A DNA stretch of 64,000 nt from a virus. Lineage: Duplodnaviria > Caudoviricetes. Location of the stretch: the IMG/VR virus record IMGVR_UViG_3300032030_000026, positions 51,074-115,073 of that record. One strand, given 5' to 3'. Every line of letters starts with the position of its first letter. Positions within the stretch are counted from its first letter, which is position 1. The notes under the pieces are model-generated. The model had not been told where the DNA came from, did no database searches, and worked only from the letters and a program-made list of their open reading frames with translations. Shown one piece after another: positions 2,025-64,000 of the stretch. The translations under genes and the position numbers were made by a program.

Positions 2025-5000
2025 TTACACACCATGCACGGTTAAAGCAAATCCGCCGTTTGCCTTTCCGACACAATTACCTAATTTAGTTATTACGGTT
2101 TTTAATGCATTCATTTCGGCTTCTAATTTTTCTAATTTTTCCTTATTAGGATCTTTCTTAGGAACCTGTGGTTTTGATTTAGAAGATCCATCCGTAGGTT
2201 TTGCAAGACCTTCTCTGGATCCTCCTCCGCTACCTAAGCTGGAGAAGTCTTTATTATTCACATCATCTAAAGCGGCGGTAAGTTTTTCCAATGCTTCCAA
2301 CAATTTTTCATTAATTACATCAGCGAGTTTATCAAAATTACCTTGGATGCTATCGGAGAATAAATACAATTCATGCATAAGCTCCTTCAGAGAGGTGACC
2401 TTGGAGATATCTAATGTATTCACGGATTTGATGAGTTTGACGGAGTCGTCGGTGACCTGCTTCCAAGCGGAGGTGCATTGATTTAAGTTAGATCCGTTTA
2501 CATTTTGGAATATAGACTTAGCTATCAGTTCTATGGCATGGCCGGCCGGGGTATCTATCTTGTCTTTTAGGCTCGTGAATTTTATATTTTCATATTTACC
2601 GCAGGTCTCCAGATATTTATCATAAGGGAGGTTCATAAGCAAGCCTAGTGACATGACCTGATCCTTGCTAACATGTCCGGCATCGGAAATGTCCTTCAAG
2701 AACCGGCTTGCCATCCAGGTTATAGTCAGTGTATCTTCGGTTCCGTTATTGATCGTGTGAACGGTTATGTTCTTAGCTTTGATCTGGGTCTTGATCATTT
2801 GGTCGGTAGCCTTGCCCATAAGAATAGTAGACATGAGATAGTTTTTAGTATTATCCAATAATCTATTGACTACATCGGTCTTGAGTTTCTCGTCCATAAC
2901 GGTAACGGTCTTTTCTATCACATTTCCAAGAGCATCCATCTGATCATTAAAATTATCCGGTATTTTCCATTTAGATAACTTAACGGCTCTTTTAGCTATC
3001 TTATTCAAGATACGGAGTATGTTGCTGATAGTATTGACTTTTCGTTTCGTCTGGCGCAATTTTCTACGTTTGACTTTATTCAAAGCAAACACTATACCAC
3101 CTTCTCCATCCCGACCGACGATTGCGAATATCGGAGCGGTGAGCTTATCCGGATTTATCGGGGGCATAGCGGTTACCTGCATAGCTGCTGTGCAGATATC
3201 TTTTATCTTCAAAACAGTTTTAGATATAGAAGCTATCTTCAATGCGGACTTACCCATTTCTACCAGACCTAGCTGATTCAGATAATAGAGTACACTGCCC
3301 TCCTCGTATCCTTTCTTGATACCTAGGAATCCCTTAGCTTCCTTGCCACCATCCGGAGATAGCTGCAATGCACGGAGAGGTATAAGCATTTTCTCCGATA
3401 ACTTTCGGGCTACCTCGGTGGGATCTCCTGTAATACCGGCTGTATCCATAGCCATAGAAGCTTCCGCCAAGGCTTTCATAGCCTGGGCTGCTGTCTGAGC
3501 TATTTTAGAAATAGACCACATAGCAGCCTCCCCCAATAAGAACGCTGCTGCCTGAGGACCTAGAAGCAAGAACCCGGCAATCGCTGCCATGCCCCCAAGT
3601 TCGGCTATAACCAAAGCCATGATCTGAGAGGTTCCCAACAAGTCACCAGCATCGGTCATGGCAGCCACCTCTCCGAGAGATCTAAACGCCGGCATAGCCG
3701 CATTTAATATCAGAGTTATACCACCCAAAGCAGCCTCCCCAATAAGTAAATCTTGTTTAGGTATCTTAGACAGAATAAAAACCATTCCTCCTAATTCCGC
3801 CATAACTAAAGTCATAATTTGAGAGGTTCCCAGCAAATCACCGGCCTCCGTTTCTTTTGACACTTTCCCAATTATACCCATCACAAGTGCGGCCATCCCG
3901 GTTAGTATTATAATTAAAGCCATGGGAATCACCCCCTTTATAATCTCTTTTTCAAATTTTGCCAAACCCCATATCATCAAAGCCATAGCTCCTAATGTAG
4001 TTATCATAACCAACATAGTAAGAGCCACCTGTTTGAGATCTATAGTTTCGGCCAATAATGCCATCAGTGCTAAAGTGGCCACCATACCTAGAATAGCAAG
4101 GTCTATCAACAATAGTGCGGTAGCTCCTTTTTTCAAAAATGCCCCGGCTAAACTTAACAGAGCCATCAGACCTAACATAGTGGCTATAAATGTAAATGTT
4201 ATCCCTATCAAAACCATACCCAACACTATCATAGCTCCCGCGGTGATCATAGCCAGGATAATCAGAACAATTCCGCCTATAGCTCCAATCATGCTAGTGA
4301 TGACCCTATGTGATTTCCGGGACTGTGCCAATCTGGTAGATATTAAAGACATAACTAATATATATCCGCCTATAATTGCCATGATTATGGGCATGGTAGC
4401 CGCGGCCTTCATGGCTTTTTTGGGTTCCGGCATGTTGTTGATAACCTCACAGAAATCTTTCAATGTCTTAGACATATCTTTGAAGAACGTCTGTGCTTTA
4501 GAAGAATTTGCTTCTAAATTTATTTTCTCTATAAATTTCAAAAGAATCCAATACTCTAGTATAATTATCACAGTTATAGGTAAGATAATCATTAAATTTA
4601 ACATCCCTATAACAGACGGTGCATTATCCGAAGCTCTTTTTAATGACACCATAGCTACGCCCATGCCATTAAAGACTATTAAGGCATTGTTGACGTCTTG
4701 ATCCGCTAATTTAGCTTTATTAATCAACCATACCATTCCGGCAAATTCAAAAACGGCCACGGTGGCGGATATTAACACAAAATTCAGATTAATGGTATCC
4801 GCAAATTTTGGAGTATTATCAACTGCTTGTTTTAAAGATACCATAATCATACCCATGTCGTCAAAGACTTTTAGAACATTGTTAATGTCTTGATTAGCAA
4901 TTCCGGCTTTATTGATCAACCATACCATTCCGGCAAATTCGAACACCGCTATAGTAGCGGATACTAACACGAGATTTAAGTTAACGGCATCTTTGAATTT

Positions 5001-6800
5001 CGGTGTATTTGTTATGGCATCATTTAGGGTTTCAGTAAATACGGATATCATTCGCATGCTATTAATAGCAACAGACAGATTATCTTGGAATTCGTTGTTA
5101 CCAATAAGCTTTGTAATTTTTATGATCTTCCGAATAGAAGATTTGCTTAATGATACCACTTCAAGAAATTCCGTCATTTTTTCCACGCTTGCCATTCCTA
5201 AAATCATATTGTTCATCTCGGTAACTAAAATAGATATTGTTCTAGTTACTTCGATAGCGGCATTAATCTTATCGGGATTGTCTTTATCTGTAATAAATCT
5301 AGAGGTTCTCAAAATAGTATTGAAGTTGAATCTCATTATCTTTAATGCAATTAAAGACTTTAGAGCCTGTTTAGTATCTAAATTTAGTAAGGTTCGGAAT
5401 ATATTCACAATTGCATCCGCAATGTTCATAATACATTCAAAACCCTCATGAAATATCGGTTCATTGTCTTTGAAAGCTTGAATTATGGATAAAATAGAAA
5501 CCCGCTCACCCCCGTTTTTAGCATTTCTCCATTGCCCCCATTTAGCACCGGAAAACAATATAGCATATATATGTCCCAACCCTTTCTGGGCTGATTTGAA
5601 CCGCTTCCGTCCAAATAAACCGGTATACATATTTATACTCTTCAATACTATATTGATAGCTTTAAAGAACACTACTAAGGATATGGAAATCGCCGCGGCT
5701 TTCAAAGCATCTATCATAGATAGAGATTCCGTAACTCCCGCAATTATATCCATTGCCCCTTTTTTCTTAATAGTGGACTTATTGAATAAATTCCGTATAT
5801 TCCGGCGTACCCATCCATATTCTTCTCCAAATAAGAGCATCCAAGTTCGAGAAATATTTTCCTGAATCTTGGTTTTTTCTAACCACCCCATATTTTCATT
5901 GATAAAATGCAACGTTTCATTCAAGCTTTCAAATGTCTTAGAGATCATAAGCATATTTATTCGGGCTTTAACGGCGGTAGCCACATTCATATTCCCAATA
6001 TTCTCAATAAGACTCATTATAGAATGAGACCGGCGGAATATTCTATCATATATGCGCCCGAATAGTAATACATATATCTTAGATATGGTTCTTCGATACC
6101 GGAAAATTTGCTTGAAAGTGATCTTATTTTTCAGCACTTCGAAGATTGTCGGAATTAAATTAATAGTATCGGCTATAAATTTTATGCTTACCTTTGCTTT
6201 AGCAAACGGAGCCAATTTTCGATCTCCGATAAATTCTATTAGCCGAATGAGTTTCCGGAACAACATCTTATATTTTATAACAGTAAACCTATATTTTATA
6301 ACATCCCCCAAAGATATCTTTTTCAATGGAGAAGCCACAATCTCTAAGGACTCCATGATGGGTTCCATAGATTTTAAAGAGATTCTGGCTTTAATTATAG
6401 AAATTGGGTTATAATTCCCAAGTTTTTCTACAAACTTAAATAAAGACTTCATACTCTTTCTCAAGAGAATCATCCGAAACTTGTTGCCGATTAAATCTTT
6501 TAATGGAATCTTTCCAACAGTCCCCATTAAGATCTGATACTCATATATAGTATCCGTCATATTCTTCAAATCTTTAGCATTTATAGATACGGCGGAATAT
6601 GCACCGGAGATTCTTTCCAATCCATATAAAACCGCCTCCAGTGCATCCGTAGAACGCTCTATACATTTCTTCAAAGTATTGAAGAATTTCTTATCCATCT
6701 TGTTCTTAACGATAATTCTGTTTATATCATTGACAAGATTGAGTTGCTCTTTATATATTTCGAAAAGGTCTTCGCTATTAGGTATCTTGGTCTCGGCCAT
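2025..6800 (-). CDS. tape-measure-like protein with a central multi-TM region
   Basis: 1591 aa, helical, Ala/Ile/Met-rich, long hydrophobic stretch, internal 64-aa repeat (FEFAGMVWLINKA x2) and AGDLLGTSQIM x2. Confidence 0.55.
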   Translation of the reverse strand: MAETKIPNSEDLFEIYKEQLNLVNDINRIIVKNKMDKKFFNTLKKCIERSTDALEAVLYGLERISGAYSAVSINAKDLKNMTDTIYEYQILMGTVGKIPLKDLIGNKFRMILLRKSMKSLFKFVEKLGNYNPISIIKARISLKSMEPIMESLEIVASPLKKISLGDVIKYRFTVIKYKMLFRKLIRLIEFIGDRKLAPFAKAKVSIKFIADTINLIPTIFEVLKNKITFKQIFRYRRTISKIYVLLFGRIYDRIFRRSHSIMSLIENIGNMNVATAVKARINMLMISKTFESLNETLHFINENMGWLEKTKIQENISRTWMLLFGEEYGWVRRNIRNLFNKSTIKKKGAMDIIAGVTESLSMIDALKAAAISISLVVFFKAINIVLKSINMYTGLFGRKRFKSAQKGLGHIYAILFSGAKWGQWRNAKNGGERVSILSIIQAFKDNEPIFHEGFECIMNIADAIVNIFRTLLNLDTKQALKSLIALKIMRFNFNTILRTSRFITDKDNPDKINAAIEVTRTISILVTEMNNMILGMASVEKMTEFLEVVSLSKSSIRKIIKITKLIGNNEFQDNLSVAINSMRMISVFTETLNDAITNTPKFKDAVNLNLVLVSATIAVFEFAGMVWLINKAGIANQDINNVLKVFDDMGMIMVSLKQAVDNTPKFADTINLNFVLISATVAVFEFAGMVWLINKAKLADQDVNNALIVFNGMGVAMVSLKRASDNAPSVIGMLNLMIILPITVIIILEYWILLKFIEKINLEANSSKAQTFFKDMSKTLKDFCEVINNMPEPKKAMKAAATMPIIMAIIGGYILVMSLISTRLAQSRKSHRVITSMIGAIGGIVLIILAMITAGAMIVLGMVLIGITFTFIATMLGLMALLSLAGAFLKKGATALLLIDLAILGMVATLALMALLAETIDLKQVALTMLVMITTLGAMALMIWGLAKFEKEIIKGVIPMALIIILTGMAALVMGIIGKVSKETEAGDLLGTSQIMTLVMAELGGMVFILSKIPKQDLLIGEAALGGITLILNAAMPAFRSLGEVAAMTDAGDLLGTSQIMALVIAELGGMAAIAGFLLLGPQAAAFLLGEAAMWSISKIAQTAAQAMKALAEASMAMDTAGITGDPTEVARKLSEKMLIPLRALQLSPDGGKEAKGFLGIKKGYEEGSVLYYLNQLGLVEMGKSALKIASISKTVLKIKDICTAAMQVTAMPPINPDKLTAPIFAIVGRDGEGGIVFALNKVKRRKLRQTKRKVNTISNILRILNKIAKRAVKLSKWKIPDNFNDQMDALGNVIEKTVTVMDEKLKTDVVNRLLDNTKNYLMSTILMGKATDQMIKTQIKAKNITVHTINNGTEDTLTITWMASRFLKDISDAGHVSKDQVMSLGLLMNLPYDKYLETCGKYENIKFTSLKDKIDTPAGHAIELIAKSIFQNVNGSNLNQCTSAWKQVTDDSVKLIKSVNTLDISKVTSLKELMHELYLFSDSIQGNFDKLADVINEKLLEALEKLTAALDDVNNKDFSSLGSGGGSREGLAKPTDGSSKSKPQVPKKDPNKEKLEKLEAEMNALKTVITKLGNCVGKANGGFALTVHGV

Positions 6801-22916: not shown

Positions 22917-22946
22917 ATTATATAATCGGTTTTCAAAAAGGTTAAG
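22917..22946 (-). promoter_or_regulatory. phage early-type promoter CTTAA-N13-CGATTATATAAT
   Basis: one of four copies with identical spacing upstream of minus-strand genes. Confidence 0.7.
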
Positions 22947-22961
22947 AGGAAAAACTAACAA

Positions 22962-23156
22962 TTAGTCGGTAAACCCGCAGGAATTAAGATCTTTTCGATT
23001 TTGATATTCCTCCACCATAGCATCAGCTATATTAAAAGCCTCATTAGCTAGTTTTTTAGGAAGGAGCATGGCGGATATTTCGGCAAATTTTATACCGCTC
23101 TCTAAAATGCCTTGCATAGCGGCTATAGCGCAATTTTGATAAAATTCCTCATTCAT
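22962..23156 (-). CDS. hypothetical phage protein (AIAAMQGIL family)
   Basis: AxAAMQG..A..A..IADAM motif common in small phage proteins. Confidence 0.7.
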   Translation of the reverse strand: MNEEFYQNCAIAAMQGILESGIKFAEISAMLLPKKLANEAFNIADAMVEEYQNRKDLNSCGFTD

Positions 23157-23524
23157 AATCTTTCCTTCGATCCGATATCCGGGTTATCATGGGTGTGCCA
23201 CCAACATTCCTCTTTTTCTAAAAATGATTCTTTTTGACCCATGCCATCTAAAAACTCGGAATATTCTTTGTCAAGTTCGTCGGCCATCATCATAGCGGCC
23301 ACGCATAGTCCCTCTCTAAAGCCTTCTTGAAGATAATATAATTGCTCATCGGATATATCATCGGACTTGATAGTTTGTTTTCTCATATCTCGAACCCGGT
23401 TGATGACCTGTTTGAGTAACATGATTTTAATTGCCGCTCGTGTGGACAGTTCCTTTGAATATGATTTTCTCCGGTGAGGTGCATCGTCCGGAGCATCATG
23501 GGGTGGTATAGCATTTATAGGCAT
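23153..23524 (-). CDS. hypothetical protein
   Basis: 123-aa ORF, ATGA coupling with the next gene. Confidence 0.7.
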   Translation of the reverse strand: MPINAIPPHDAPDDAPHRRKSYSKELSTRAAIKIMLLKQVINRVRDMRKQTIKSDDISDEQLYYLQEGFREGLCVAAMMMADELDKEYSEFLDGMGQKESFLEKEECWWHTHDNPDIGSKERL

Positions 23525-23535
23525 GTGCTTAAGTT

Positions 23536-23793
23536 TTAATTATAAATGGAAATCACTTTAATACCCATAATCACATATCCTTCCTTGCAGTATTCTGGAT
23601 CATCCAATATATAGGTAACTTCCGCGATAATTTCTCTCCCGGAATATTCGCCGCCGAAAAATTCTTTTAGTTCGAGAATATCCTGTACATGAAAGTCTCT
23701 GTCATTTTTCCGGACTTCAAAAGTCTTATTTCCACTTTCTATCGCCCGATAATATTTCGGCATGATTTTTAATGTATGATGTTGTCTGCTCAT
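23536..23793 (-). CDS. ASCH/DUF3850 (PUA-like) domain protein
   Basis: HTLKI.P.YY.AI.SG.KTFEVRKNDRDF...D.L.L.E motif. Confidence 0.85.
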   Translation of the reverse strand: MSRQHHTLKIMPKYYRAIESGNKTFEVRKNDRDFHVQDILELKEFFGGEYSGREIIAEVTYILDDPEYCKEGYVIMGIKVISIYN

Positions 23794-23820
23794 AATTGAT
23801 GATTTTTTATTTCGAATAAC

Positions 23821-24060
23821 TTATACTAAATTTAATCTTATACCTATATACACTCGAATTGCATCATAATGTTCTCGGATGTAATTGGGATTGTTCGGAA
23901 TGGCCTCTATAGTATTGATAAATTCGTTCACTACCGTATCCGGATATTGAAGCAATGGAGTTAAATCTTTCGCGCCAATGTTTTTAACACCTTTTTCGAT
24001 AAGGTTGACAAATGTGTCTATTAAATTATCTACGTCTTTTAAGGAAAACTTCGGCTCCAT
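23821..24060 (-). CDS. hypothetical protein
   Basis: 79-aa ORF directly downstream of a promoter motif. Confidence 0.65.
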   Translation of the reverse strand: MEPKFSLKDVDNLIDTFVNLIEKGVKNIGAKDLTPLLQYPDTVVNEFINTIEAIPNNPNYIREHYDAIRVYIGIRLNLV

Positions 24061-24081
24061 AATTTTTTTTTAATTACTAAT

Positions 24082-24111
24082 TATATATAATCGAGTTCTT
24101 AATCTATTAAG
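24082..24111 (-). promoter_or_regulatory. phage early-type promoter CTTAA-N13-CGATTATATA
   Basis: same motif and spacing as the 22917, 25164 and 27032 copies. Confidence 0.65.
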
Positions 24112-24382
24112 ATATTTCTTTGCCGCATATAGGGCAATACTTAATAGGAATCCAAATATTGGCCACTTTTCTTTTATCGTCGGCAAAATACACATTTAGA
24201 TTAGATACTAATCCGTCTATATTGTGTCTTTTTCTAGAAATGGGTGTCGGAGGTATGATTGCCGCCATGACTTCGTAGTCCGGATAATCTTTAGTGTCAA
24301 CGGAAACCGGCAATAAATCTCTATATTTATGTTTATAAGCATCCATTTTATCGGATGTCAATGCTTCACAATATTTGCACAT
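24107..24382 (-). CDS. small zinc-ribbon protein
   Basis: MCKYCE...YCPICG. Confidence 0.7.
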   Translation of the reverse strand: MCKYCEALTSDKMDAYKHKYRDLLPVSVDTKDYPDYEVMAAIIPPTPISRKRHNIDGLVSNLNVYFADDKRKVANIWIPIKYCPICGKEIS

Positions 24383-24401
24383 ATCTTAATAGGTTATGAT
24401 C

Positions 24402-24800
24402 TTAATAGGTTATGCTATTAGACAAATACGCTTCAAAAAACTTTAGTTTTTCTTGTGCTATCTCTTCGGATTCGCAGTTGATATACATCTTATCGCCATC
24501 TAGAAAATGTACCACCACTTTAGCATCTTCCCAGATATATCCTTCTTCATCAAACCGGCGCTCTTCAATGTCCCTGTACTTTATAGCTTCTTCTTTTGTA
24601 TAAAATTCTTCCCGAAACAGACTGCCGCAGTCCCCATACATATCTTCTTCATAGACTTTTTTGGTGATTTTTTCACCGCCAAACCATGTGAGTTTTACTA
24701 TGGGTTCTCCTTTCTTATGAAGAAGCTGGAAACTTTTCCATTTTCTTTTGGGAATGTACTCCACATGGCTTAATTTTTCGAATATGATCTTTCTTTCCAT
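24402..24800 (-). CDS. hypothetical protein
   Basis: 132-aa ORF in the small-gene block. Confidence 0.7.
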   Translation of the reverse strand: MERKIIFEKLSHVEYIPKRKWKSFQLLHKKGEPIVKLTWFGGEKITKKVYEEDMYGDCGSLFREEFYTKEEAIKYRDIEERRFDEEGYIWEDAKVVVHFLDGDKMYINCESEEIAQEKLKFFEAYLSNSITY

Positions 24801-24807
24801 AGCGAAC

Positions 24808-25140
24808 TTATTTTAAATATTCTTTTTCAAATTCGTCTGTTTTGAGAGGAAAATATCGTTGTCCTGGTAACTGCTTTAAATCATATCCATTACAATATTC
24901 TAACAATATTGGATATTTCTTAAAAATTGGATCTGTATAATGAAAATCAAACCAAGTATACATGTCACGATCTTCCGGATTGTTGGAGGACTTATATTTA
25001 TCTCCATATATAGAAAGATAGTTTCTATCTGTAGTGTAAATCTTACCAGGTTTCTCCCTAAGAGTTATTCCGCAAGTTCCCTTATACAAATAGAGTCCTG
25101 TGATTTTATGTTTTAATACATATGGTTTTTGTCTATTCAT
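24808..25140 (-). CDS. hypothetical protein
   Basis: 110-aa ORF (Y.LKHK.TGLY start) downstream of a promoter motif. Confidence 0.7.
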   Translation of the reverse strand: MNRQKPYVLKHKITGLYLYKGTCGITLREKPGKIYTTDRNYLSIYGDKYKSSNNPEDRDMYTWFDFHYTDPIFKKYPILLEYCNGYDLKQLPGQRYFPLKTDEFEKEYLK

Positions 25141-25163
25141 TATTATAAGAATTTCTTTATGAT

Positions 25164-25193
25164 ATTATATAACCGGAATTTAAAAAGGTTAAG
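25164..25193 (-). promoter_or_regulatory. phage early-type promoter CTTAA-N13-CGGTTATATAAT
   Basis: same motif and spacing as the other three copies. Confidence 0.7.
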
Positions 25194-25401
25194 TTGTTTT
25201 TCTCCAAGCACAATCCTTTTTAAAACATTTCATGTCGTTGGAAACATACCAAAGAGCTTTGAATTGTTCGTTAATCTCCCGATATTCGGACTTCCAGTGT
25301 CTATATTTATTCTTATATACTCTATAAAGATTATAAAAATACACACAAAGAACCAATAAGATTACGGATACAAAAATTAAAATCACTGATAATAATGTCA
25401 T
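25189..25401 (-). CDS. small membrane-anchored protein
   Basis: N-terminal TM helix, ATGA coupling with the upstream gene. Confidence 0.6.
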   Translation of the reverse strand: MTLLSVILIFVSVILLVLCVYFYNLYRVYKNKYRHWKSEYREINEQFKALWYVSNDMKCFKKDCAWRKTT

Positions 25402-25670
25402 AGGTTTGATTTTTGTTGAAAATTTTCACATTTATCACAATCGTGCACAAACATCCGGGATTCGCCGGATTCGTCGGCGAGATTGCATCTTCCCCGATCC
25501 TCAATAAGGTCATCCAGAACTATATTGATACTTTTGTAATGCACACAATTCCTACAAATGTTAGATTCATTAGTTTCTTTATACTTCATCCATTTATGAA
25601 CCACCACGCATAGTATAATGAGACTTGTGATGAAGAAAATTACAAAAAATGCACAAATTGATTTTATCAT
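25398..25670 (-). CDS. membrane-anchored Cys-rich protein
   Basis: N-terminal TM helix then C..C.HY...G.C...C..F. Confidence 0.65.
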   Translation of the reverse strand: MIKSICAFFVIFFITSLIILCVVVHKWMKYKETNESNICRNCVHYKSINIVLDDLIEDRGRCNLADESGESRMFVHDCDKCENFQQKSNL

Positions 25671-25681
25671 AATGTTATAAA

Positions 25682-27013
25682 TTAAAATTCAAAAATCTTT
25701 CTAAATTGATCATCATCCCAGTCTCTCCAGTTATCTGCTGTGATCATTATATGTTTGTCACCAATGCCTTCATTATAAATTCCGCGTGGATAGAACTTCT
25801 CTGTATACTCGGCCAGACGATCTCTCTGTCTCGAGGTAAACGGAAGATCTCTCATAGCCGATCCGGTGTCAATCAGAGAGTAACCGGAATAGCGAACACT
25901 TCCCTCATGGAACCGTACCCAGCCCATCTTATCAAGATACCAATCCCTGTTGAAATTATCGCAGGGAAGTTCTTTCATACTCGACCAGTTCTCAAACACC
26001 GCATCCGCGATGTCAAGGTGGGCAAGCCGAGATTCCTCACCGTCCATAGCCAGCACATTACCGTCTCGGTCGATGAATCCTGCGGTCCAGTTGTGATCGA
26101 ATTTCACCGGCTCGGAGATGTCTCTTCTCTCAGGCTCTTTTCTTGCGGCCACGAATCTGTCTAGTTCATCAAAGACTGTTGCTCCGGCGATATTGTCGCA
26201 TTGTCTAGACACAGCATAGTCGGATGTATGTTCTTCTAGATATTGGTGAGTAGCATTCCATTCTTTCAGTCCGTCTTCGTCAAGCTCTTTCATCACGCTG
26301 AGCAGTTTGGCAAGATCGGAAACAATCGCCATATATTCTGTGAAGCCCTCGCATTCTCCGGAGCAAGCAAGATTTTCCATCATCCATTCACGGACTCGGA
26401 TCAGTTTCAATCCTTCGTTCACGTATTTTCTGAGCCCCTCCAAGTCATTGAAGATGTCGCTCACTCGCTGAGAAAAACACCTAGTGAGCTCGCCAGACTC
26501 GATGATCTGCTGCATCTGGTAGTCGTTGGTCATCCAGATTCTAGCGAGATCCATCGGAGTGAATCGTGCGCCGACTGACCAGTGCCAGCCTTTTGGCAGA
26601 TCAAAGATCGCTTCAGCATGGTCGATGTCAAGATCGTACAGCAGCACGTTAGAGAAGAATTGATAGAGATGTTTTTGCAAATACTCGCCCTGCTCGACAA
26701 GGTCAAATCCCTCTTTGTGGATGGTGTGATAAAGAAAATGAGGATCGAATTTGTGATACTCTTCGTAGTCGCCTTCGGGTAGCTCGTCTTTAGAGCAGAT
26801 ACCCATCGTTCCTCCGTCTATGACATAGAGGAATAGCTGGGAACGCAGGATCGGCGCCACATACTGCTCGGGACAGCCGGACAGCACTAGAGCGTCCCAA
26901 GCCTTTTGCGGTTCCATCTCGCAGAACAGATGCTCATGAGCGATGTTCTGGAGCATGATGCCGGCGTTAGCGCCGAGCGAGAAGTGAAGGGTATGTTTTT
27001 CAGTGTTTGCCAT
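25682..27013 (-). CDS. hypothetical protein, GC-rich insertion
   Basis: 443 aa; about 50% GC in a sampled line versus AT-rich flanks; C-terminal GFIDRDG..H..IA..GWVRF motif. Confidence 0.8.
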   Translation of the reverse strand: MANTEKHTLHFSLGANAGIMLQNIAHEHLFCEMEPQKAWDALVLSGCPEQYVAPILRSQLFLYVIDGGTMGICSKDELPEGDYEEYHKFDPHFLYHTIHKEGFDLVEQGEYLQKHLYQFFSNVLLYDLDIDHAEAIFDLPKGWHWSVGARFTPMDLARIWMTNDYQMQQIIESGELTRCFSQRVSDIFNDLEGLRKYVNEGLKLIRVREWMMENLACSGECEGFTEYMAIVSDLAKLLSVMKELDEDGLKEWNATHQYLEEHTSDYAVSRQCDNIAGATVFDELDRFVAARKEPERRDISEPVKFDHNWTAGFIDRDGNVLAMDGEESRLAHLDIADAVFENWSSMKELPCDNFNRDWYLDKMGWVRFHEGSVRYSGYSLIDTGSAMRDLPFTSRQRDRLAEYTEKFYPRGIYNEGIGDKHIMITADNWRDWDDDQFRKIFEF

Positions 27014-27031
27014 ATTATCAAAATTTACAAT

Positions 27032-27061
27032 ATTATATAATCGCCTTTGTAAACAATTAAG
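27032..27061 (-). promoter_or_regulatory. phage early-type promoter CTTAA-N13-CGATTATATAAT
   Basis: fourth copy, immediately downstream of a terminator. Confidence 0.7.
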
Positions 27062-39335: not shown

Positions 39336-39363
39336 AAAAGGACCTCACGAGGTCCTTTTTTTT
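39336..39363. terminator. bidirectional intrinsic terminator
   Basis: AAAAGGACCTC-ac-GAGGTCCTTTT between convergent genes. Confidence 0.8.
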
Positions 39364-39847
39364 ATTTTGGGAATCTTACTATTTTATGATATTTTCCCCA
39401 AGCATTTGGTGTTGGATTATATTTTTCCGATTTTTCAAATCCAAACTTCTCATATAATTTATACAGCACATCTAATGATATTTTAAACATATCATCCGGA
39501 TCTCCAACAAGAACGATATTATTATCATCCGCCCACAAAGATAATTCACTTAAAACGTACGAAGCTATTCCCCGATTACGGAGAGCCGGTTTTACTTGTA
39601 TGGATACAAGTTCTATTACCATGCTGTCAGTATGAAATAATTTTTTCTGGGAGTCATCTCGTTTAAGTATAAGTTCACTTAAGCCATATTCTTCGGATAA
39701 TTCCGGATGAAGATTATCTTCCGAATCCATGCTAATTATAAATGTTTCTAGATTTCTCGAAAAAGACTTTTCAAGTGATTTGTATAAATTTCCGGGTTTT
39801 ATTTTCACACCAGTTTTTCCTATAATAGATTCAATAATGTGCTTCAT
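39362..39847 (-). CDS. GNAT-family acetyltransferase with an MKHIIESIIG leader
   Basis: IQVKPALRNRGIASYVL (acetyl-CoA motif A) and LYKLYEKFGF. Confidence 0.8.
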   Translation of the reverse strand: MKHIIESIIGKTGVKIKPGNLYKSLEKSFSRNLETFIISMDSEDNLHPELSEEYGLSELILKRDDSQKKLFHTDSMVIELVSIQVKPALRNRGIASYVLSELSLWADDNNIVLVGDPDDMFKISLDVLYKLYEKFGFEKSEKYNPTPNAWGKYHKIVRFPK

Positions 39848-45093: not shown

Positions 45094-46929
45094 ATGGAAA
45101 CTTATAATCCTTACGAATATAATATATTGCAAGAAAATTTACAGGAAGCCGGAGTAATTTCGGAAGCTCGTGTGCAAGATATTCCCGGAATGAATACAAC
45201 TACTAAATTCAAGCCCAAATATTCTTCTAAAGACATAGAATTTGCGGAAAAGAAGTCTAAAAAGACTATTGCTCGGTTCTTTTCTAATCTTTCTCGACTG
45301 GGAATGAATTATGATGAACAGGTTATTAAAAACATGCGGGCTATCCCGGCCGATAAAAACCTGTTGCCCGATGAAAGACAGATTACATATCAGAATCTCT
45401 TCCAACAACTTCAATCCGCCTGGAAACAAAAGGCTAATGCGGATCAGAGTTTTTATGAAAAAGATATTTCTAGCAAGCGAGAAAACCTCCGGACATTAGC
45501 TATGCAGCCGGAATTAGAAGATATATTAGATACATTTTCTAATGAAGCCATTGTATATGATTCCAACTTTGTTTATTTTGCGGAACCTTTTATTGATGAC
45601 AAAGACCTTGTGGATTATAATAAAAGTGTCCGATCAAAGATTAATGATTGTGTGTCCGCCGGATTCAAACGTTTTTATAAGATGCTTAAATGGCGAACCA
45701 AGGCGTGGGATGATTTCAAAAGATTTCTAGTAGAAGGTTGCCTGGCTTGGGAAATAGTATATGATTCTTTAGAGAAACCTACAAAAATCATAGGACTCGT
45801 GCCATTAGATCCGGCAACACTTACTAAGAAATTCGAGAATGATAAATGGTATTGGGTACAATATAAAGATGTCAAGGCTAAGGAAAGAAAATTATTGGAT
45901 TCTCAAGTAATATATATAGTATTCCAAGAAACGGAGGCTATATCGAGAACCAGTTATCTAGAGCGGTTAGTACGGCCATTTAATATTTATAGAATCATCG
46001 AACAAGCTCAGATTATATTTTGTGTCACTAATGCTCAGTACAAGATGAAATTCACGATTCCGGTGAAAGGCATGAACCGGGCATTAGGATCTCAGACATT
46101 GAATTCGGCTATGCAGAGATATCGGGAAGATATCAAATTTATATCGGAGAGCGGTGAACTGACTATTAATGGCCAGCCACAAATGCCTTTCAATAAGGAA
46201 TATTGGATGGCGGAATCGGAGAGCGGAACACCGGACATCGAGACCCTTGCCGGAGATTCCGGTCCCGATCTTTTAGATTCCGATTATCTGAAATTCTTTA
46301 GGAACCAGCTTTATAAAGTATCTAAAATCCCGTTGAATAGATTTGATGTAGATAGCGGAGAAGGCTGGTTTGGTACCGATGCCGAGTCTTATGCCCGAAA
46401 CGAAATAGACTTTGGAAGATACGTCACTAGAATGAGAAATATATTCTCACAGATTATCTTAAAGCCTATCTGGATCCAGCTATGCCTGGATATGCCCGAA
46501 ATGATGGATTCTCCGGAATTCCAAGATTGTATCCAGCTCCACTATCATTCCTATAATCTATTTGAAGAGATGATGGAAATCCAGCTCATGGATCGCCGTA
46601 TTGAATCTATCAACAATATGAAAGAACTTCAAGATATGGATATGGAAGGTAATGAAGTAACCTTCTTTGCTTCTAAGTTCTTAGTTCAGAAATACTTACA
46701 TCTTTCCGACGCAGATCTCAAACTCAATGAGAAATATAAACAAGAAGAAGTAGAGAAATTCAACTTAGCTGGCGGTGAAAGACCACAGCAACCCGGACAA
46801 TCCAGCCGTTATGGCAGTACTCCCGGTAGTTGGGAAAGCATGCTGGCTAAGATGAGCGATATGGAGCGGAGGATAGATGAAAAGCTTAAAAAGTATAAGG
46901 ACCTTATCAGTGAATCTGAAGAGTTATAG
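45094..46929 (+). CDS. portal protein (T4 gp20-like)
   Basis: PELEDILD..NEAIV, SYLERL.RPFN, EYWM, IETLAG, YLKFFRNQLYKVSKIPLNRF, RNEIDFGRYV.RMR. Confidence 0.9.
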   Translation: METYNPYEYNILQENLQEAGVISEARVQDIPGMNTTTKFKPKYSSKDIEFAEKKSKKTIARFFSNLSRLGMNYDEQVIKNMRAIPADKNLLPDERQITYQNLFQQLQSAWKQKANADQSFYEKDISSKRENLRTLAMQPELEDILDTFSNEAIVYDSNFVYFAEPFIDDKDLVDYNKSVRSKINDCVSAGFKRFYKMLKWRTKAWDDFKRFLVEGCLAWEIVYDSLEKPTKIIGLVPLDPATLTKKFENDKWYWVQYKDVKAKERKLLDSQVIYIVFQETEAISRTSYLERLVRPFNIYRIIEQAQIIFCVTNAQYKMKFTIPVKGMNRALGSQTLNSAMQRYREDIKFISESGELTINGQPQMPFNKEYWMAESESGTPDIETLAGDSGPDLLDSDYLKFFRNQLYKVSKIPLNRFDVDSGEGWFGTDAESYARNEIDFGRYVTRMRNIFSQIILKPIWIQLCLDMPEMMDSPEFQDCIQLHYHSYNLFEEMMEIQLMDRRIESINNMKELQDMDMEGNEVTFFASKFLVQKYLHLSDADLKLNEKYKQEEVEKFNLAGGERPQQPGQSSRYGSTPGSWESMLAKMSDMERRIDEKLKKYKDLISESEEL

Positions 46930-46954: not shown

Positions 46955-47347
46955 ATGAAAAGTTTAACGGAATCTATTAAGAATGTCAAAGAAAGAAGAA
47001 CTCCATATCAAATTGATCAAAATGATCTAAAAAAGGTGGAAAAAGTCTTGAATGATAAAAAAACCTGGAAAGAATTATCTAAATTATGCAACCTATCGGA
47101 AGAAATCACCAAGCTATATTGCACTAGCCGATTGGAAATGCTTTCAGATCCGGAGTGGTATGAAAATTTCGAAGGAGTGCGTGATCTTAATATGACTTAT
47201 GCTATTTCCGAATTAGCCGATACTGATGATGAAGACTTCCAAATAGAATTAGATGATGAAAATATTTCCGGATGGGAATGGCAAGATATTAGTAATTTGG
47301 TCACCGATGTTATGAACAGATGCCTCAAGGCTTTAAGATACTCTTAA
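46955..47347 (+). CDS. hypothetical acidic protein with an MKSLTESI leader
   Basis: 130-aa ORF between the portal gene and a terminator. Confidence 0.7.
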   Translation: MKSLTESIKNVKERRTPYQIDQNDLKKVEKVLNDKKTWKELSKLCNLSEEITKLYCTSRLEMLSDPEWYENFEGVRDLNMTYAISELADTDDEDFQIELDDENISGWEWQDISNLVTDVMNRCLKALRYS

Positions 47348-48242: not shown

Positions 48243-48611
48243 ATGAAACATATTTATGAATCTATAATAGGTCGGAGAGGGACATCAAATAATCCAATTA
48301 TCGAGTTGCAAGATGGAGATGTTGTAGTCCTAAGAAATAATCGTTATATGGTAGTCTATGGAGATATGATTCATGGTAAAAATACATCCACTGGCCCGGA
48401 TGAAGGTATAGCTATAAATAGTTATAATCATAATTTGATATATAAACACAAGAATAGAGGGATGGATATTATGGCTATATATAGATTTACGGACCCAGGC
48501 CCCATAGATCCGGAAGAACAATATGTCAGTTCCTATCTTAAGTCATTTGTGGCCCTCAATTTGAAAGGAAATATCCATTATGGTATGAATACTATATTTG
48601 AAAGAAAGTGA
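48243..48611 (+). CDS. ESIIGRKG-leader paralogue 1
   Basis: MKHIYESIIGRRG; GDVVVLRN..YN.NL..DIMAIYR..IFER core. Confidence 0.75.
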   Translation: MKHIYESIIGRRGTSNNPIIELQDGDVVVLRNNRYMVVYGDMIHGKNTSTGPDEGIAINSYNHNLIYKHKNRGMDIMAIYRFTDPGPIDPEEQYVSSYLKSFVALNLKGNIHYGMNTIFERK

Positions 48612-49119: not shown

Positions 49120-49144
49120 AAAAAAGGACCACCGGTCCTTTTTT
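49118..49144. terminator. bidirectional intrinsic terminator
   Basis: AAAAAAGGACC-acc-GGTCCTTTTTT between convergent genes. Confidence 0.8.
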
Positions 49145-49535
49145 AGTCTCTCTTCCAGATCTGCTCCATATTATATTTCGGAATCATATGTTTTAGATCG
49201 CGTAAAAATTTTAATATATAACTAGTATCCCATGCGGACTGTTTAGATACTTCATTATACTTACGAGGCAATTTTCCGGTTCGATCTCTCCATACTTCCA
49301 TGATATCATAAGACTCACTCATATTATAGCACATATTTCTGTCATAAAAAGAAAGACTAAATACTTGAGTAGTATCACTATCCCAATAACTGATTATTCG
49401 TTCTTTTGAGTCATTTATAATCCCAACCCGCCAATTCCTAAGTATTAATATATCCCCCGATTCGAGATTGGATATTGAGAAGTTCGGTGTTGTCATTCCT
49501 TTCCTTCCTATTATAGATTCATGTATGTGCTTCAT
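49143..49535 (-). CDS. ESIIGRKG-leader paralogue 2
   Basis: start ATG 49535, MKHIHESIIGRKG; GDILILRN..YD.N..YDIMEVWR..IWKR. Confidence 0.75.
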   Translation of the reverse strand: MKHIHESIIGRKGMTTPNFSISNLESGDILILRNWRVGIINDSKERIISYWDSDTTQVFSLSFYDRNMCYNMSESYDIMEVWRDRTGKLPRKYNEVSKQSAWDTSYILKFLRDLKHMIPKYNMEQIWKRD

Positions 49536-49567
49536 ATTTCTAAAAAACTTCATATTTGCGATATAAC

Positions 49568-49618
49568 AAGCGATCTTATTTTAGATGTGCAGTTATGTTA
49601 GTTATATCCCGATCGCTT
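49568..49618. repeat. ~51-bp imperfect palindromic element, copy 3
   Basis: AAGCGATC...GATCGCTT; left flank is the reverse complement of the copy-2 right flank. Confidence 0.75.
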
Positions 49619-49655
49619 AAAATAAGCGCGTTTCCGGCGCAATATGCGCATGTTT

Positions 49656-50009
49656 TTATTTAGATTTCCATATAGGAGAATTATGGTTGATAAAATTTTC
49701 AATTTTTTTATAATTAGGATTACGGATGCTATTGCCGGAGCGATATATACTTACAATATCAATATCACAATCATTATATTCACCACATCTGATATCTCTA
49801 AGCATATTGTCATATGAACTTAAAAAATCATCAATATATACGTTCATAATATTGATCGAGGCTACCGCGTAATATGTAAGCATCATATCGTCTTGTAGAT
49901 ACCAACACATCCCATTCCTCATTACTAATATGTCTCCTATCCGAATATCGTCTTTTGGTGAAAATTGACTCCCTTTCCGGCCTATTATAGATTCGATAAT
50001 ATGCTTCAT
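49656..50009 (-). CDS. ESIIGRKG-leader paralogue 3
   Basis: MKHIIESIIGRKG; GDILVMRNG..YDNML..DIVSIYR..PIWK. Confidence 0.75.
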   Translation of the reverse strand: MKHIIESIIGRKGSQFSPKDDIRIGDILVMRNGMCWYLQDDMMLTYYAVASINIMNVYIDDFLSSYDNMLRDIRCGEYNDCDIDIVSIYRSGNSIRNPNYKKIENFINHNSPIWKSK

Positions 50010-50068
50010 AATATCTATTTTCTTAAAATAATTTTGAAAAATTCACCATAGAGAAAAATGTACTCGGC

Positions 50069-50197
50069 TCAATAGCCCATTTGATTTTTTTCCCTTACGG
50101 CTTTATTGCTTCTCAAATATCCGGTAGTAATTGATGCCATCATACTGGGGTTCATTTCTATAGACTCATTAATATATTTATCTAGTTTTTTCATCAT
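50069..50197 (-). CDS. 42-aa peptide with an MKKLDKYINES leader (below the ORF-track cutoff)
   Basis: ATGA-coupled to the stop of 50194..50592. Confidence 0.4.
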   Translation of the reverse strand: MMKKLDKYINESIEMNPSMMASITTGYLRSNKAVREKNQMGY

Positions 50198-50592
50198 ATT
50201 TTCATTTTATTTTTCAGATCATCCCAGAGATCTCGGAATCTTTCATAATTTGCAGTATTTAATACTCCTCTATACACTTCTACTATATCATCCTCCGGAC
50301 AATCGGGAATCCGAAGATCCATATCGTATTCTTGATGCAATCCCAAACACCAAATAGTCCCGGGCTGGCCACCTTCCGGCATAGTGTAGGCTTCAAGGTT
50401 GACTCGTTTGATTATCTGATGCTGGACTCCGGGGGAACATTGTTTATAATCCAGACATATATAGTACCAGCCGTTTCTTGTCTTTAAGACATCTAAATGT
50501 CTTAAATCTGTTATTTTGGGATTAGATAAACGTTTTCCCCTAAAATATTGCGAGCCTTTCCGGCCTATTATAGATTCTTGTAATGTTTTCAT
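50194..50592 (-). CDS. ESIIGRKG-leader paralogue 4
   Basis: MKTLQESIIGRKG; LSNPK..DL.HLDVLKTRNG..YD.DLR..DIVEVYRG. Confidence 0.75.
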   Translation of the reverse strand: MKTLQESIIGRKGSQYFRGKRLSNPKITDLRHLDVLKTRNGWYYICLDYKQCSPGVQHQIIKRVNLEAYTMPEGGQPGTIWCLGLHQEYDMDLRIPDCPEDDIVEVYRGVLNTANYERFRDLWDDLKNKMKI

Positions 50593-50594
50593 AA

Positions 50595-50942
50595 TTACTC
50601 CTTAGATTTATTTTGATTCCGAATAATCTCTCTCATCATAACCTTATCATCATTCAAAGCTTTTTCTCTATCTATAGCCTGTTTATATCCGGATTGGCAT
50701 AATTTTAATGAATCTTCCAGAACAATGATTTTTACACTTAATGAATCTATAATTGTCTTTTGAGAATATATTGTGGAATCTTTAGAAGCAATGGCCTCCG
50801 TATATTGTGCATCCTTCCACCGATCCTTAGTCTTATGAGAACAATGAGAGCATGTCTGTAAAAATATGATACACAATAGAATAATTATAACTACCTTGGA
50901 GTTATCTAATATTTTTTTAAAAAAGTTCTTAAGTTTTTCCAT
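50595..50942 (-). CDS. membrane-anchored coiled-coil protein (spanin/lipoprotein-like)
   Basis: basic N-terminus, hydrophobic helix with Cys, then coiled coil. Confidence 0.5.
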   Translation of the reverse strand: MEKLKNFFKKILDNSKVVIIILLCIIFLQTCSHCSHKTKDRWKDAQYTEAIASKDSTIYSQKTIIDSLSVKIIVLEDSLKLCQSGYKQAIDREKALNDDKVMMREIIRNQNKSKE

Positions 50943-50946
50943 AAAA

Positions 50947-51321
50947 TTAAACTATTTCTTTCATCCGTTCTTGTAAAATATTCCAAATTGTTTGAAAATC
51001 CGGATAATCTTTATTAACGAATATACCTCTATATACGGCTACTATATTATATTCTTTACCACCGGTCTTACAACGAAGATCTTGATAATAGTGGTTTAAA
51101 CCTAACCGTAATACAAGACCACCAATAATTCTATAAACATCAAATTCATTAATTCTAGCTACTCGATCCTGAAACCTATCCGGATCTATACATATATAGA
51201 TATTGCCATTTGCACACTTTACCACATCTAGGTGGTGCAAATCTTCTAGTTTAGGATTAGATAACTTATATATTGATTTAGATCCTTTCCGTCCTATTAT
51301 AGATTCTTGTATAGACTTCAT
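50947..51321 (-). CDS. ESIIGRKG-leader paralogue 5
   Basis: MKSIQESIIGRKG; LSNPK..DL.HLDVVKCANG..Y.QDLR..NIVAVYRG. Confidence 0.75.
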   Translation of the reverse strand: MKSIQESIIGRKGSKSIYKLSNPKLEDLHHLDVVKCANGNIYICIDPDRFQDRVARINEFDVYRIIGGLVLRLGLNHYYQDLRCKTGGKEYNIVAVYRGIFVNKDYPDFQTIWNILQERMKEIV

Positions 51322-51323
51322 AT

Positions 51324-52712
51324 TTATAGTATTTCTAAATCTTTAAGATGTTCATTGACACTTAAGAGTTTTTCTATAATTCCGGTATCAGAACAACCCG
51401 ATTGTGTCGGATACATCATAGAGCAAAATAGATTTATCGGCTCTTTATGATCATCATAGACATTATCGATAAATTCTATATCTCCGGAAATTATGCACTT
51501 CTCAATCAGTATAGCTTCTTCTTCCGGAAGATTATCTAAACAGTCCCCAATCCGATTGATATTATATTCCGGAGAAGCATATTTCCACCCTTCTACTAAA
51601 CATTCGAACATATCATCCCCGACTAAAGTTTCTTCGAGATTCCGATAATTGCTAGATATTAAGCTTTCACTATATATATCCAAGAGTTCTTGTAAAAGCG
51701 GGCGAGTTTTTTTATCACTCTGCAGCCATGTAATTACGGATTTAACTCTCTGTGATACGGCCGCTCCGGTAATACCATATTGTTTTGCTAGTTCTACTCC
51801 GGTCATCTTTTTATATCCGTGTAATCCAAAGTATGAATAGAATATAGAAGTGGTCTTATCCGGGAACTTCTTATCTATCATATCATAGATTTTTTCCATT
51901 TGTCCGGTATCTTGAATCTTTCCGGCGGACGGGTCTACGGTCATTCCCGGGAGTTTATCCGCCAAGTTCCCATTTTCATTATCACTATTAGTAATATCTA
52001 TACGAACAGTAGAGAAAGAACGTCCTTCTTTTTCGGCTTTTTCAAATCCATGCTGAGTGACCCGGACCGTTCTGGAATAATTGTTAATATCATTAAGGAT
52101 CTGTTGTTTGATGCGCCATCCGGCATATTGCTTGAAACTAAGTTTCTTCATTTTATCATCCTCAACATTAGAATGAGTATTTCTTTTGTAATCGTTCATG
52201 GCTTTAACCAACCCCATATTGGCCGCACTTACCAATGAATTCCAATCTAACCCACACTTGCCTCTATATTTAGCGGCAATAGATACCGCCAGTTTAGAAT
52301 ATTGCTTCACAATACGAGCTCTTCCTCTCTCGGAAGTAAGATCAAGTGTAATATCCTCTATATTTTTATCGCCGGATATTAAAGATTTTCTATCTTCATC
52401 ATTTACAAGAAGAGGAAGTATTCCTATATTAGCATCTCCAATATTATTTAGATCATTTTTCAGACTTTCAATATTACTCTGGGATATGCCGGTGTCTCGT
52501 GCTACTACTTTCAGATCGGTAGCGCTGCCATGTATAATTCTGTTTAATATACTTTCATCGGTTATATTATAATGAATTAAGAGGTTTATAACTTTCCGAA
52601 CATCATCCGGGATGTTCTTACCCAGTTTGTTTACATATTCTTCCATATCCTTGCCGGATACAACGTTAAACCTTCTATTGTTTTCTAAGATTTGTTCGGT
52701 GAATGATTTCAT
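51324..52712 (-). CDS. sigma-70-family RNA polymerase sigma factor with N- and C-terminal extensions
   Basis: region 2 (LAVSIAAKY..L.....GLVKA..FKQYAGWRIKQQI..SRTVRV) and region 4 HTH (YFGL..MT..ELAKQYGITGAAVSQ). Confidence 0.85.
   Translation of the reverse strand: MKSFTEQILENNRRFNVVSGKDMEEYVNKLGKNIPDDVRKVINLLIHYNITDESILNRIIHGSATDLKVVARDTGISQSNIESLKNDLNNIGDANIGILPLLVNDEDRKSLISGDKNIEDITLDLTSERGRARIVKQYSKLAVSIAAKYRGKCGLDWNSLVSAANMGLVKAMNDYKRNTHSNVEDDKMKKLSFKQYAGWRIKQQILNDINNYSRTVRVTQHGFEKAEKEGRSFSTVRIDITNSDNENGNLADKLPGMTVDPSAGKIQDTGQMEKIYDMIDKKFPDKTTSIFYSYFGLHGYKKMTGVELAKQYGITGAAVSQRVKSVITWLQSDKKTRPLLQELLDIYSESLISSNYRNLEETLVGDDMFECLVEGWKYASPEYNINRIGDCLDNLPEEEAILIEKCIISGDIEFIDNVYDDHKEPINLFCSMMYPTQSGCSDTGIIEKLLSVNEHLKDLEIL

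Positions 52713-61437: not shown

Positions 61438-64000
<2,563 letters not shown>

Follow-up and report, generated by a model that had tools for sequence, protein, structure and literature searches.

A sigma-70-family protein of large gut and rumen phages with a T4-like capsid-targeting leader, possibly packaged and injected

The 64-kb window analysed here lies at the end of a 115,073-bp IMG/VR virus contig (IMGVR_UViG_3300032030_000026; Caudoviricetes), and one of its genes encodes a 462-residue protein (Table 1) that is confirmed, on sequence and predicted fold, as a genuine sigma-70-family protein with region 2 and region 4. The protein opens with a decapeptide, MKSFTEQILE, resembling the capsid-targeting sequence (CTS) with which phage T4 marks proteins for its head. 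We consider it plausible, while stopping short of calling it probable, that this sigma factor is packaged in the virion and injected, reprogramming host RNA polymerase. The packaging and injection reading is partly supported, as several in silico predictions agreed with it: the clade has T4-type head machinery, the tag is conserved, portable and predicted not to pack against the fold, the upstream box is of the structural-gene class, no phage RNA polymerase gene was detected, Shine-Dalgarno motifs are depleted and Bacteroidota-type promoters are not enriched. No paper describing a virion-packaged or injected sigma factor was found.

A sequence-only reading of this DNA had proposed a sigma-70-type core running from region 2 to region 4, and this core is borne out. 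The protein scores 60.3 bits against TIGR02937 (cut-off 42.9) and matches the sigma factor family phrog_351 at 2e-21, while the Pfam models for region 2 (residues 135-211) and region 4 (residues 284-325; 20.1 bits, cut-off 24.1) fall just under threshold. An AlphaFold2 model built from 28 homologues (mean predicted local distance difference test score, pLDDT, 79) resembles the sigma chains of RNA polymerase holoenzymes in fold comparison, with a sigma2 fold at residues 124-216 (Z 9.8, root-mean-square deviation 2.8, 79 residues aligned) and a sigma4 fold at residues 265-341 (Z 9.4, deviation 2.0, 68 residues aligned to SigA region 4). The -10 melting determinants are kept in sigma2 (FKQYAGWRIKQ and RTVRVTQH), and its F/Y/W melting residues align with those of Thermus sigmaA. 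Residues 52-146 align with region 1.2 and the non-conserved region of the same protein (phmmer, whole match E 2.4e-8), residues 52-120 being the part that lies within the N-domain. No sigma3 alignment was obtained for residues 230-269, and the 3.0 helix is limited to its beginning (RTVRVTQH). The core was also said to carry extensions of ~130 and ~110 residues; the N-terminal one, at ~123, agrees with this, and the C-terminal one is longer than claimed, at ~125. The C-domain has an isoelectric point of 4.05 and a net charge of -20; folded alone it gave no informative fold match (best Z 6.2, to helical hairpins), and a protein atlas search with the N- and C-domains returned nothing usable. As modelled, the core is primary-sigma-like, minus sigma3 and plus a clade-specific acidic C-domain of unmatched fold.

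The protein belongs to a family of ~87 homologues, nearly all 460-490 residues long, with identities of 29-97% and on contigs of up to 259 kb. Both extensions are conserved across the family, and because the homologues align over their full length the extensions are integral to the protein. No close homologue was found among 50,697 deposited phage records. Gene order is stable: a divergent 145-aa gene, the sigma gene, one to five small genes, and then, convergently, the lysin gene, gp13 and the portal gene.

Packaging of the T4 kind is expected to involve a T4-type head. On the contig, whose completeness is estimated at 57% and whose full genome would therefore be ~200 kb, we found a large terminase, a T4-type portal, a gp13-like neck gene, a GH108 lysin and a collagen-like fibre. 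The closest portals from isolates are those of Sphingomonas phage PAU, the Prevotella Lak phages and Tenacibaculum phage PTm1, at 31-41% identity. In the two near-complete relatives (97-100%), G001 (240 kb) and G002 (159 kb), a gp21-type prohead protease (Peptidase_S77) and a Gp23 capsid protein score above the Pfam cut-offs, and the contig has orthologues of genes that adjoin the protease in relatives. A multisubunit RNA polymerase was not detected: PF00623 was silent in G000, G001 and G002, and its positive controls were found in 14 of 14 genomes; PF00940 was silent as well, as was its own control. G001 and G002 each carry three sigma-family genes, and both minimal and RpoD-like sigmas have been described in group 2 jumbo phages (Iyer et al. 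2021, PMC7824862). The Gp23 capsid protein, the prohead protease, the three sigmas and the lack of an RNA polymerase place the clade among the group 2 jumbo phages. The two additional sigma genes of G001 lie at 137303-138499 and 221143-221814 (~400 and ~225 aa) and have equivalents in G002 and G003; the ~225-aa protein starts MCKIYSNITE, which fits the tag loosely at positions 4 and 8-10. Neither was found in the 57%-complete contig.

The open reading frame does begin with MKSFTEQILE, as had been read from the sequence, and the T4 sequence with which it had been compared, MKTYQEFIAE, is the published one (PMC8442874). In T4, this CTS is cut once, after its final Glu, and is enough to load foreign proteins fused to it into the head (PMC8442874). 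The CTS is the sole common feature of the diverse T4 internal proteins (PMC3012670), and the 76-kDa ejected enzyme Alt is cut at ITE-6 and LTE-619 (PMC5694885). The sigma tag fits both T4 positions, since FTE-6 corresponds to ITE-6 of Alt and ILE-10 to IAE-10 of the CTS. Every sigma homologue opens M-x-x-F-[TS]-x-x-[IVL]-x-E (MKLFTEIIAE, MRKFSERIME and MHNFTQYITE are examples besides the one here), and even homologues at 25% identity still conserve the decapeptide in its amino acids. Its codons vary synonymously among homologues, which indicates selection on the peptide. In the AlphaFold2 model, residues 1-12 form an unanchored helix of low confidence (pLDDT below 50) beside confidently folded domains.

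Further cleavage sites were sought along the protein. The motif IYSES had been noted right after region 4, and it does lie nine residues past sigma4, at residues 346-350, within a conserved helix (E349 and S350 are conserved in at least 90% of homologues); its part as a protease site was rejected, because Y-S-E falls outside the [LI]xE rule. LQE-342 fits that rule better but is E or D across the family. In this sigma, [IL]xE sites are lacking from residues 11-340 and number six in the C-domain, of which LQE-342 is the first. Across the family, 61 are observed in the sigma core vs 96.5 expected, and 132 in the C-domain vs 77.

A tag that is removed by a phage protease might also serve without any packaging. 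In such a scheme the decapeptide would keep the factor inactive until the protease removed it, coupling a transcription switch to head assembly as in a pro-sigma of the Bacillus pro-sigmaE or pro-sigmaK type. The Glu-ended motif fits the protease family of the clade, and there are weak sequence and fold matches to SigK/SigE and to the SpoIVFB:pro-sigmaK complex (Z 8.4), although these amount to generic sigma2 similarity. Moreover, work on T4 (PMC5694885) places the activity of this type of protease within the assembled prohead core, so that cleavage would already imply encapsidation, and the same tag stands on dozens of unrelated proteins rather than being specific to sigma. We therefore regard this scheme as improbable.

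The tag is expected to be portable if it acts as a targeting signal. Nineteen genes of the contig start MK[HTS][IL]xESIIG[RK][KR]G, with degenerate versions besides, among them those of the gene right after the portal and of a GNAT-like protein; in total, 22 genes of the contig are tagged, as are ~40 of the 311 genes of G001 and 19 of the 200 of G003. Overall, the tag starts 7-13% of the genes in these phages. Leaders of G003 such as MKTLQEHISE and MKTLFEYIIE match the T4 CTS at up to seven of ten positions. A CTS-like regular expression matched 4 of 144 and 16 of 311 true N-termini, the sigma among them in both genomes tested, vs 0 of 839 and 1 of 1387 decapeptides starting at internal Met residues. 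The bodies behind the tag are unrelated to one another (DUF285, DUF7678, GNAT-like, AAA-like and ligase-like). In G001, the sigma (MHNFTQYITE) and an unrelated 219-aa protein (MNNFTQYITE) share nine of ten leader residues, with five synonymous differences between the leaders and unrelated DNA upstream. On these comparisons, the tag is a portable peptide restricted to N-termini.

The sequence-only reading had also placed the sigma gene at the head of a run holding four ESIIGRKG genes. This holds: by layout and terminator, the sigma gene and five small genes form a six-gene unit on the minus strand, closed by a terminator. The interval between sigma and lysin (49143-51321) is a hyperplastic region like the internal protein loci of T-even phages, its small genes numbering one to five across relatives, with a GIY-YIG/T5orf172 gene in one of them. 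A tagged gene directly follows the portal gene, in the position of gp67/gp68, in the contig, L006 and G001; no tagged gene was seen there in L002, L007, L008 or L011, and no such tags in the head region of Tenacibaculum phage PTm1.

Repeated leaders of this kind could also arise with no role for the peptide, through gene birth by a mobile promoter-leader cassette (PeSL-like) or through a constraint on starts without Shine-Dalgarno motifs. The ESIIGRKG leaders (48258-48280, 49498-49520, 49972-49994, 50555-50577 and 51284-51306 in the window, and 14 more upstream in the contig) do share a 14-nt core, GAATCTATAATAGG, that is near-invariant in DNA over codons 6-9. Within it TCT is used in 19 of 19 leaders, with TCT making up 27% of Ser codons, and ATA twice in 18 of 19, while the conserved residues on either side differ in their synonymous codons; TATAAT lies within the core, as does an interrupted palindrome, CTAT-A-ATAG. 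Relatives also differ in how many small genes follow sigma, as such a cassette would allow. However, this nucleotide constraint is absent from the G001 leaders, which use all six Leu codons, and from the sigma gene here, whose leader varies synonymously, and identical peptides occur with unrelated upstream DNA. That the shared N-terminus is a by-product of either kind is thus, in our estimate, very improbable.

To place the sigma gene among expression classes, the DNA upstream of genes was compared. An 18-nt box, TATT(T/C)TTTAATCATTAAA, has only two copies in 115 kb, one before the sigma gene and one before the portal gene, and in the sister phage L006 both genes retain it despite diverged surrounding DNA. 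The palindromic core of the box, TTTAAT-C-ATTAAA, is found only before these two start codons; it might serve as an operator, belong to a late promoter or form a weak RNA hairpin. G001 has another box, TTATTATTT, upstream of 32 genes, among them those for the sigma, the portal and the sheath (302 bits) as well as homing endonuclease genes, genes for large tail-type proteins and several tagged genes. The distance from the end of this box to the ATG is often exactly 4 nt, a sign that mRNAs may be very short or leaderless. A T4-late-type motif, TATAAATA, was rejected, as it is not enriched in intergenic DNA (5 of 35 sites). Generic sigma-70 promoter-like sites near the sigma gene are at chance level (31 vs 25.9), and Gibbs sampling of upstream regions gave only AT-rich motifs of low information.

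A second class of upstream signal has two elements. On the contig it reads cCTTAAg-N13-CGATTATATAAT, with ~10 copies; exact CTTAA-N13-CGRTTATATA sequences number four in the window and ~10 in the 115-kb contig. In G003 it reads tGTTAA-N16-TTTATATAT, with 22 copies vs 1.4 expected by chance. These promoters sit after terminators and before small genes, never before sigma or structural genes, and they are conserved between lineages whose sigmas are 39% identical. The conservation fits recognition by a factor with sigma2 and sigma4 and makes the two-element promoters candidate targets of this sigma. They had been called early-type from the sequence, and here the four exact copies stand, 'early' being a presumption about timing rather than an observation. 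The sigma gene itself carries the box of the portal and sheath class and not a two-element promoter.

The host is expected to leave its mark on translation and transcription signals. Shine-Dalgarno motifs are depleted in the contig and in G001 (7-8% of genes vs 11-14% of random 16-mers), and positions -15 to -11 upstream of genes are A-rich. Start regions that lack Shine-Dalgarno motifs and are A-rich are the Bacteroidota style of translation initiation, and the promoter code of Bacteroidota is unlike the TATAAT type. Upstream of the phage genes, the Bacteroidota -7 box TAnnTTTG is not enriched; TATAAT is. If the host is one of the Bacteroidota, its holoenzyme is therefore not expected to read most phage promoters. 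A search of genome assemblies for a host returned only two weak matches and a 410-kb phage-like scaffold binned as 'Firmicutes' (ONIZ01000001.1; L015/L035), deposited as an 'uncultured Firmicutes bacterium' rumen genome and also held in IMG/VR. It carries a distant member of the sigma family and is probably a megaphage misfiled as a bacterial bin.

Taken together, we infer promoter choice, host phylum, late timing, packaging, cleavage and injection as follows. The sigma would be made together with the structural genes, late in infection, and its decapeptide would draw it into the prohead core, where the T4-type prohead protease would clip it after Glu. The clipped protein would be ejected with the DNA into the next host and, as the phage has no polymerase of its own, would bind host core RNA polymerase. 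It would most likely direct that enzyme to the TTAA-~16 nt-TTATATA promoters before small genes, which the host's own sigma is probably unable to read, so that host core polymerase and injected sigma could start phage transcription at once, at time zero. Injected along with the sigma, the other tagged proteins, dozens in number, would make up a toolkit.

A number of observations weigh against packaging and injection. Neither the prohead protease nor the capsid gene was found in the 57%-complete contig. The tagged proteins include likely cytoplasmic enzymes and, unlike the T4 internal proteins, which are small and highly basic, they are not basic: their median isoelectric point is 5.8, as is that of the comparison set, in the contig (5.8 vs 5.8) and 7.0 vs 5.6 in G001 (p=0.14), and the whole sigma protein has a net charge of -11. 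The commonest tag variants, ESIIGRKG and ESLFDxDL, have no Glu at position 10. An RNA-ligase-like protein is tagged in G001, and its orthologue here is untagged; this orthologue (contig, -36654..-34801 relative to the window) is fused to an N-terminal nucleotidyltransferase-like segment with a GRFQP motif. The [IL]xE distribution is only suggestive, and weakly so, because the sequences are related and helical periodicity is unmodelled. The 18-nt box of sigma and portal was not seen in distant relatives, and autoregulation by a late sigma would also explain why the two genes share it. The two-element promoters could be read by the two extra sigmas of the relatives. Finally, the host is no more than probably a member of the Bacteroidota.

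Several of these points lend weight to the principal alternative, that the protein is an ordinary intracellular phage sigma in a three-sigma cascade, made after infection and never packaged. The tag would then have another function common to its bearers, for instance in partner binding, stability or translation, and the box shared with the portal gene would reflect the autoregulation just mentioned or a generic expression signal; the position of the G001 box, often exactly 4 nt before the ATG, would agree with a signal for translation or for a leaderless start. Every phage sigma characterised so far acts intracellularly, group 2 jumbo phages carry minimal and RpoD-like sigmas (PMC7824862), and G001 and G002 have three sigma genes each. 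The frequency of the tag, enzyme-like proteins included, and the non-basic character of its bearers also point this way. However, an intracellular role leaves unexplained why a clade that has a T4-type protease retains, as a peptide, an unpacked decapeptide like those of the CTS and Alt, and it requires host-type promoters, which are not enriched. In addition, the single A/T-rich structural box would suit a minimal, gp55-like sigma better, while the two-element class suits a factor with sigma2 and sigma4. We take this alternative seriously, although we lean against it.

The packaging and injection reading can be set beside several known systems. As with the T4 internal proteins IPI-III and Alt, a tag of ~10 residues (M-K-[ST]-hydrophobic-x-E-x-I-x-E, ending in [LI]xE) stands on unrelated, fast-evolving proteins, in a clade whose portal, capsid protein and prohead protease are of T4 type, and Alt is itself the precedent for a large protein that acts on host RNA polymerase and is delivered via the head. 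In contrast to T4, where no such cargo is known, the cargo here would be a sigma factor, and the tag occurs on far more than a handful of genes. The RpoD-like sigmas of group 2 jumbo phages (PMC7824862) also belong to polymerase-less phages with gp23-type capsids, in which fuller and smaller sigmas redirect host RNA polymerase, but the family here differs in having no sigma3, an acidic C-domain and a CTS-like tag. N4, phiKZ-like and crAss-like phages likewise carry a transcription component that reads non-host early promoters at time zero; those phages deliver a whole polymerase, whereas the phage here, in which no RNA polymerase gene was found, would send in the specificity subunit alone. Bacillus pro-sigmaE and pro-sigmaK resemble this sigma in having, at the N-terminus, a short peptide that a protease may remove, but their pro-sequences are 20-27 residues long, sigma-specific and cut by a membrane protease, while the peptide here is common to many unrelated proteins. 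T4 gp55 and SPO1 gp28 and gp33-34 show that phage sigmas switch host RNA polymerase between temporal classes, as the three sigmas of the relatives might; all of these are newly synthesised once the cell is infected, and none bears a tag resembling a capsid-targeting sequence.

To our knowledge, phages get their first genes transcribed either through host-type early promoters or by carrying a whole RNA polymerase in the particle. Delivery of the specificity subunit alone, if it occurs, would be a third and much cheaper solution, and it would explain how polymerase-less large phages infect Bacteroidota despite TATAAT-type promoters. It would also extend the T4 capsid-targeting principle to a deep-branching clade of gut and rumen jumbo phages, with the tag on up to one in eight genes, and would make the tag a sequence rule for predicting injected proteins, among them candidate anti-defence and takeover factors, from metagenomes. 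Should packaging prove wrong, there would still be a well-populated family with a sigma architecture not described before and a defined candidate promoter.

Table 1 Features of the 64-kb window discussed in the text (positions are those of the window).
Feature	Position	Strand	Remarks
Sigma-70-family gene	51324..52712	-	462 aa, start MKSFTEQILE
Codons 1-10, CTS-like N-terminal tag	52683..52712	-	MKSFTEQILE (FTE-6, ILE-10); pLDDT <50
N-domain	52350..52655	-	residues 20-121; helical, acidic
Sigma2	52026..52343	-	residues 124-229
Disordered linker in the place of sigma3	51906..52025	-	residues 230-269; pLDDT <50
Sigma4	51702..51905	-	residues 270-337
C-domain	51327..51701	-	residues 338-462; confident, conserved six-helix bundle
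Upstream box of the sigma gene, TATTCTTTAATCATTAAA	52725..52742	-	13 nt before sigma ATG; common to portal gene
Same box at the portal gene, TATTTTTTAATCATTAAA	45067..45084	+	10 nt before portal ATG
T4-type portal gene	45094..46929	+	Portal_T4, 229.7 bits
130-aa gene	46955..47347	+	right after portal; degenerate tag MKSLTESIKN
ESIIGRKG gene 1	50947..51321	-	MKSIQESIIGRKG; 2 nt past sigma stop codon
115-aa untagged gene	50595..50942	-	N-terminal hydrophobic segment, coiled-coil-like
ESIIGRKG gene 2	50194..50592	-	
ESIIGRKG gene 3	49656..50009	-	
ESIIGRKG gene 4	49143..49535	-	likely start MKHIHESIIGRKG
Bidirectional terminator	49120..49144		closes sigma-led unit and convergent lysin gene
Fifth ESIIGRKG-type gene of the window	48243..48611	+	ESIIGRRG
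161-aa tagged gene	39362..39847	-	MKHIIESIIGKTG; GNAT-like body, 24.2 bits (under cut-off 27)
Exact CTTAA-N13-CGRTTATATA promoters	22919..27061	-	27034-27061, 25166-25193, 24084-24111, 22919-22946

If the tag does load proteins into the head, the 161-aa GNAT-like protein would be a candidate injected acetyltransferase. Elsewhere in the window, a giant open reading frame of 1591 aa (2025-6800, minus strand) has no PHROG match, and its counterpart in G001 (1126 aa) carries the structural-class upstream box. The collagen-like tail-fibre gene (61438-63999, plus strand) is open at the window end and has a GC content of 51% vs ~36% elsewhere.

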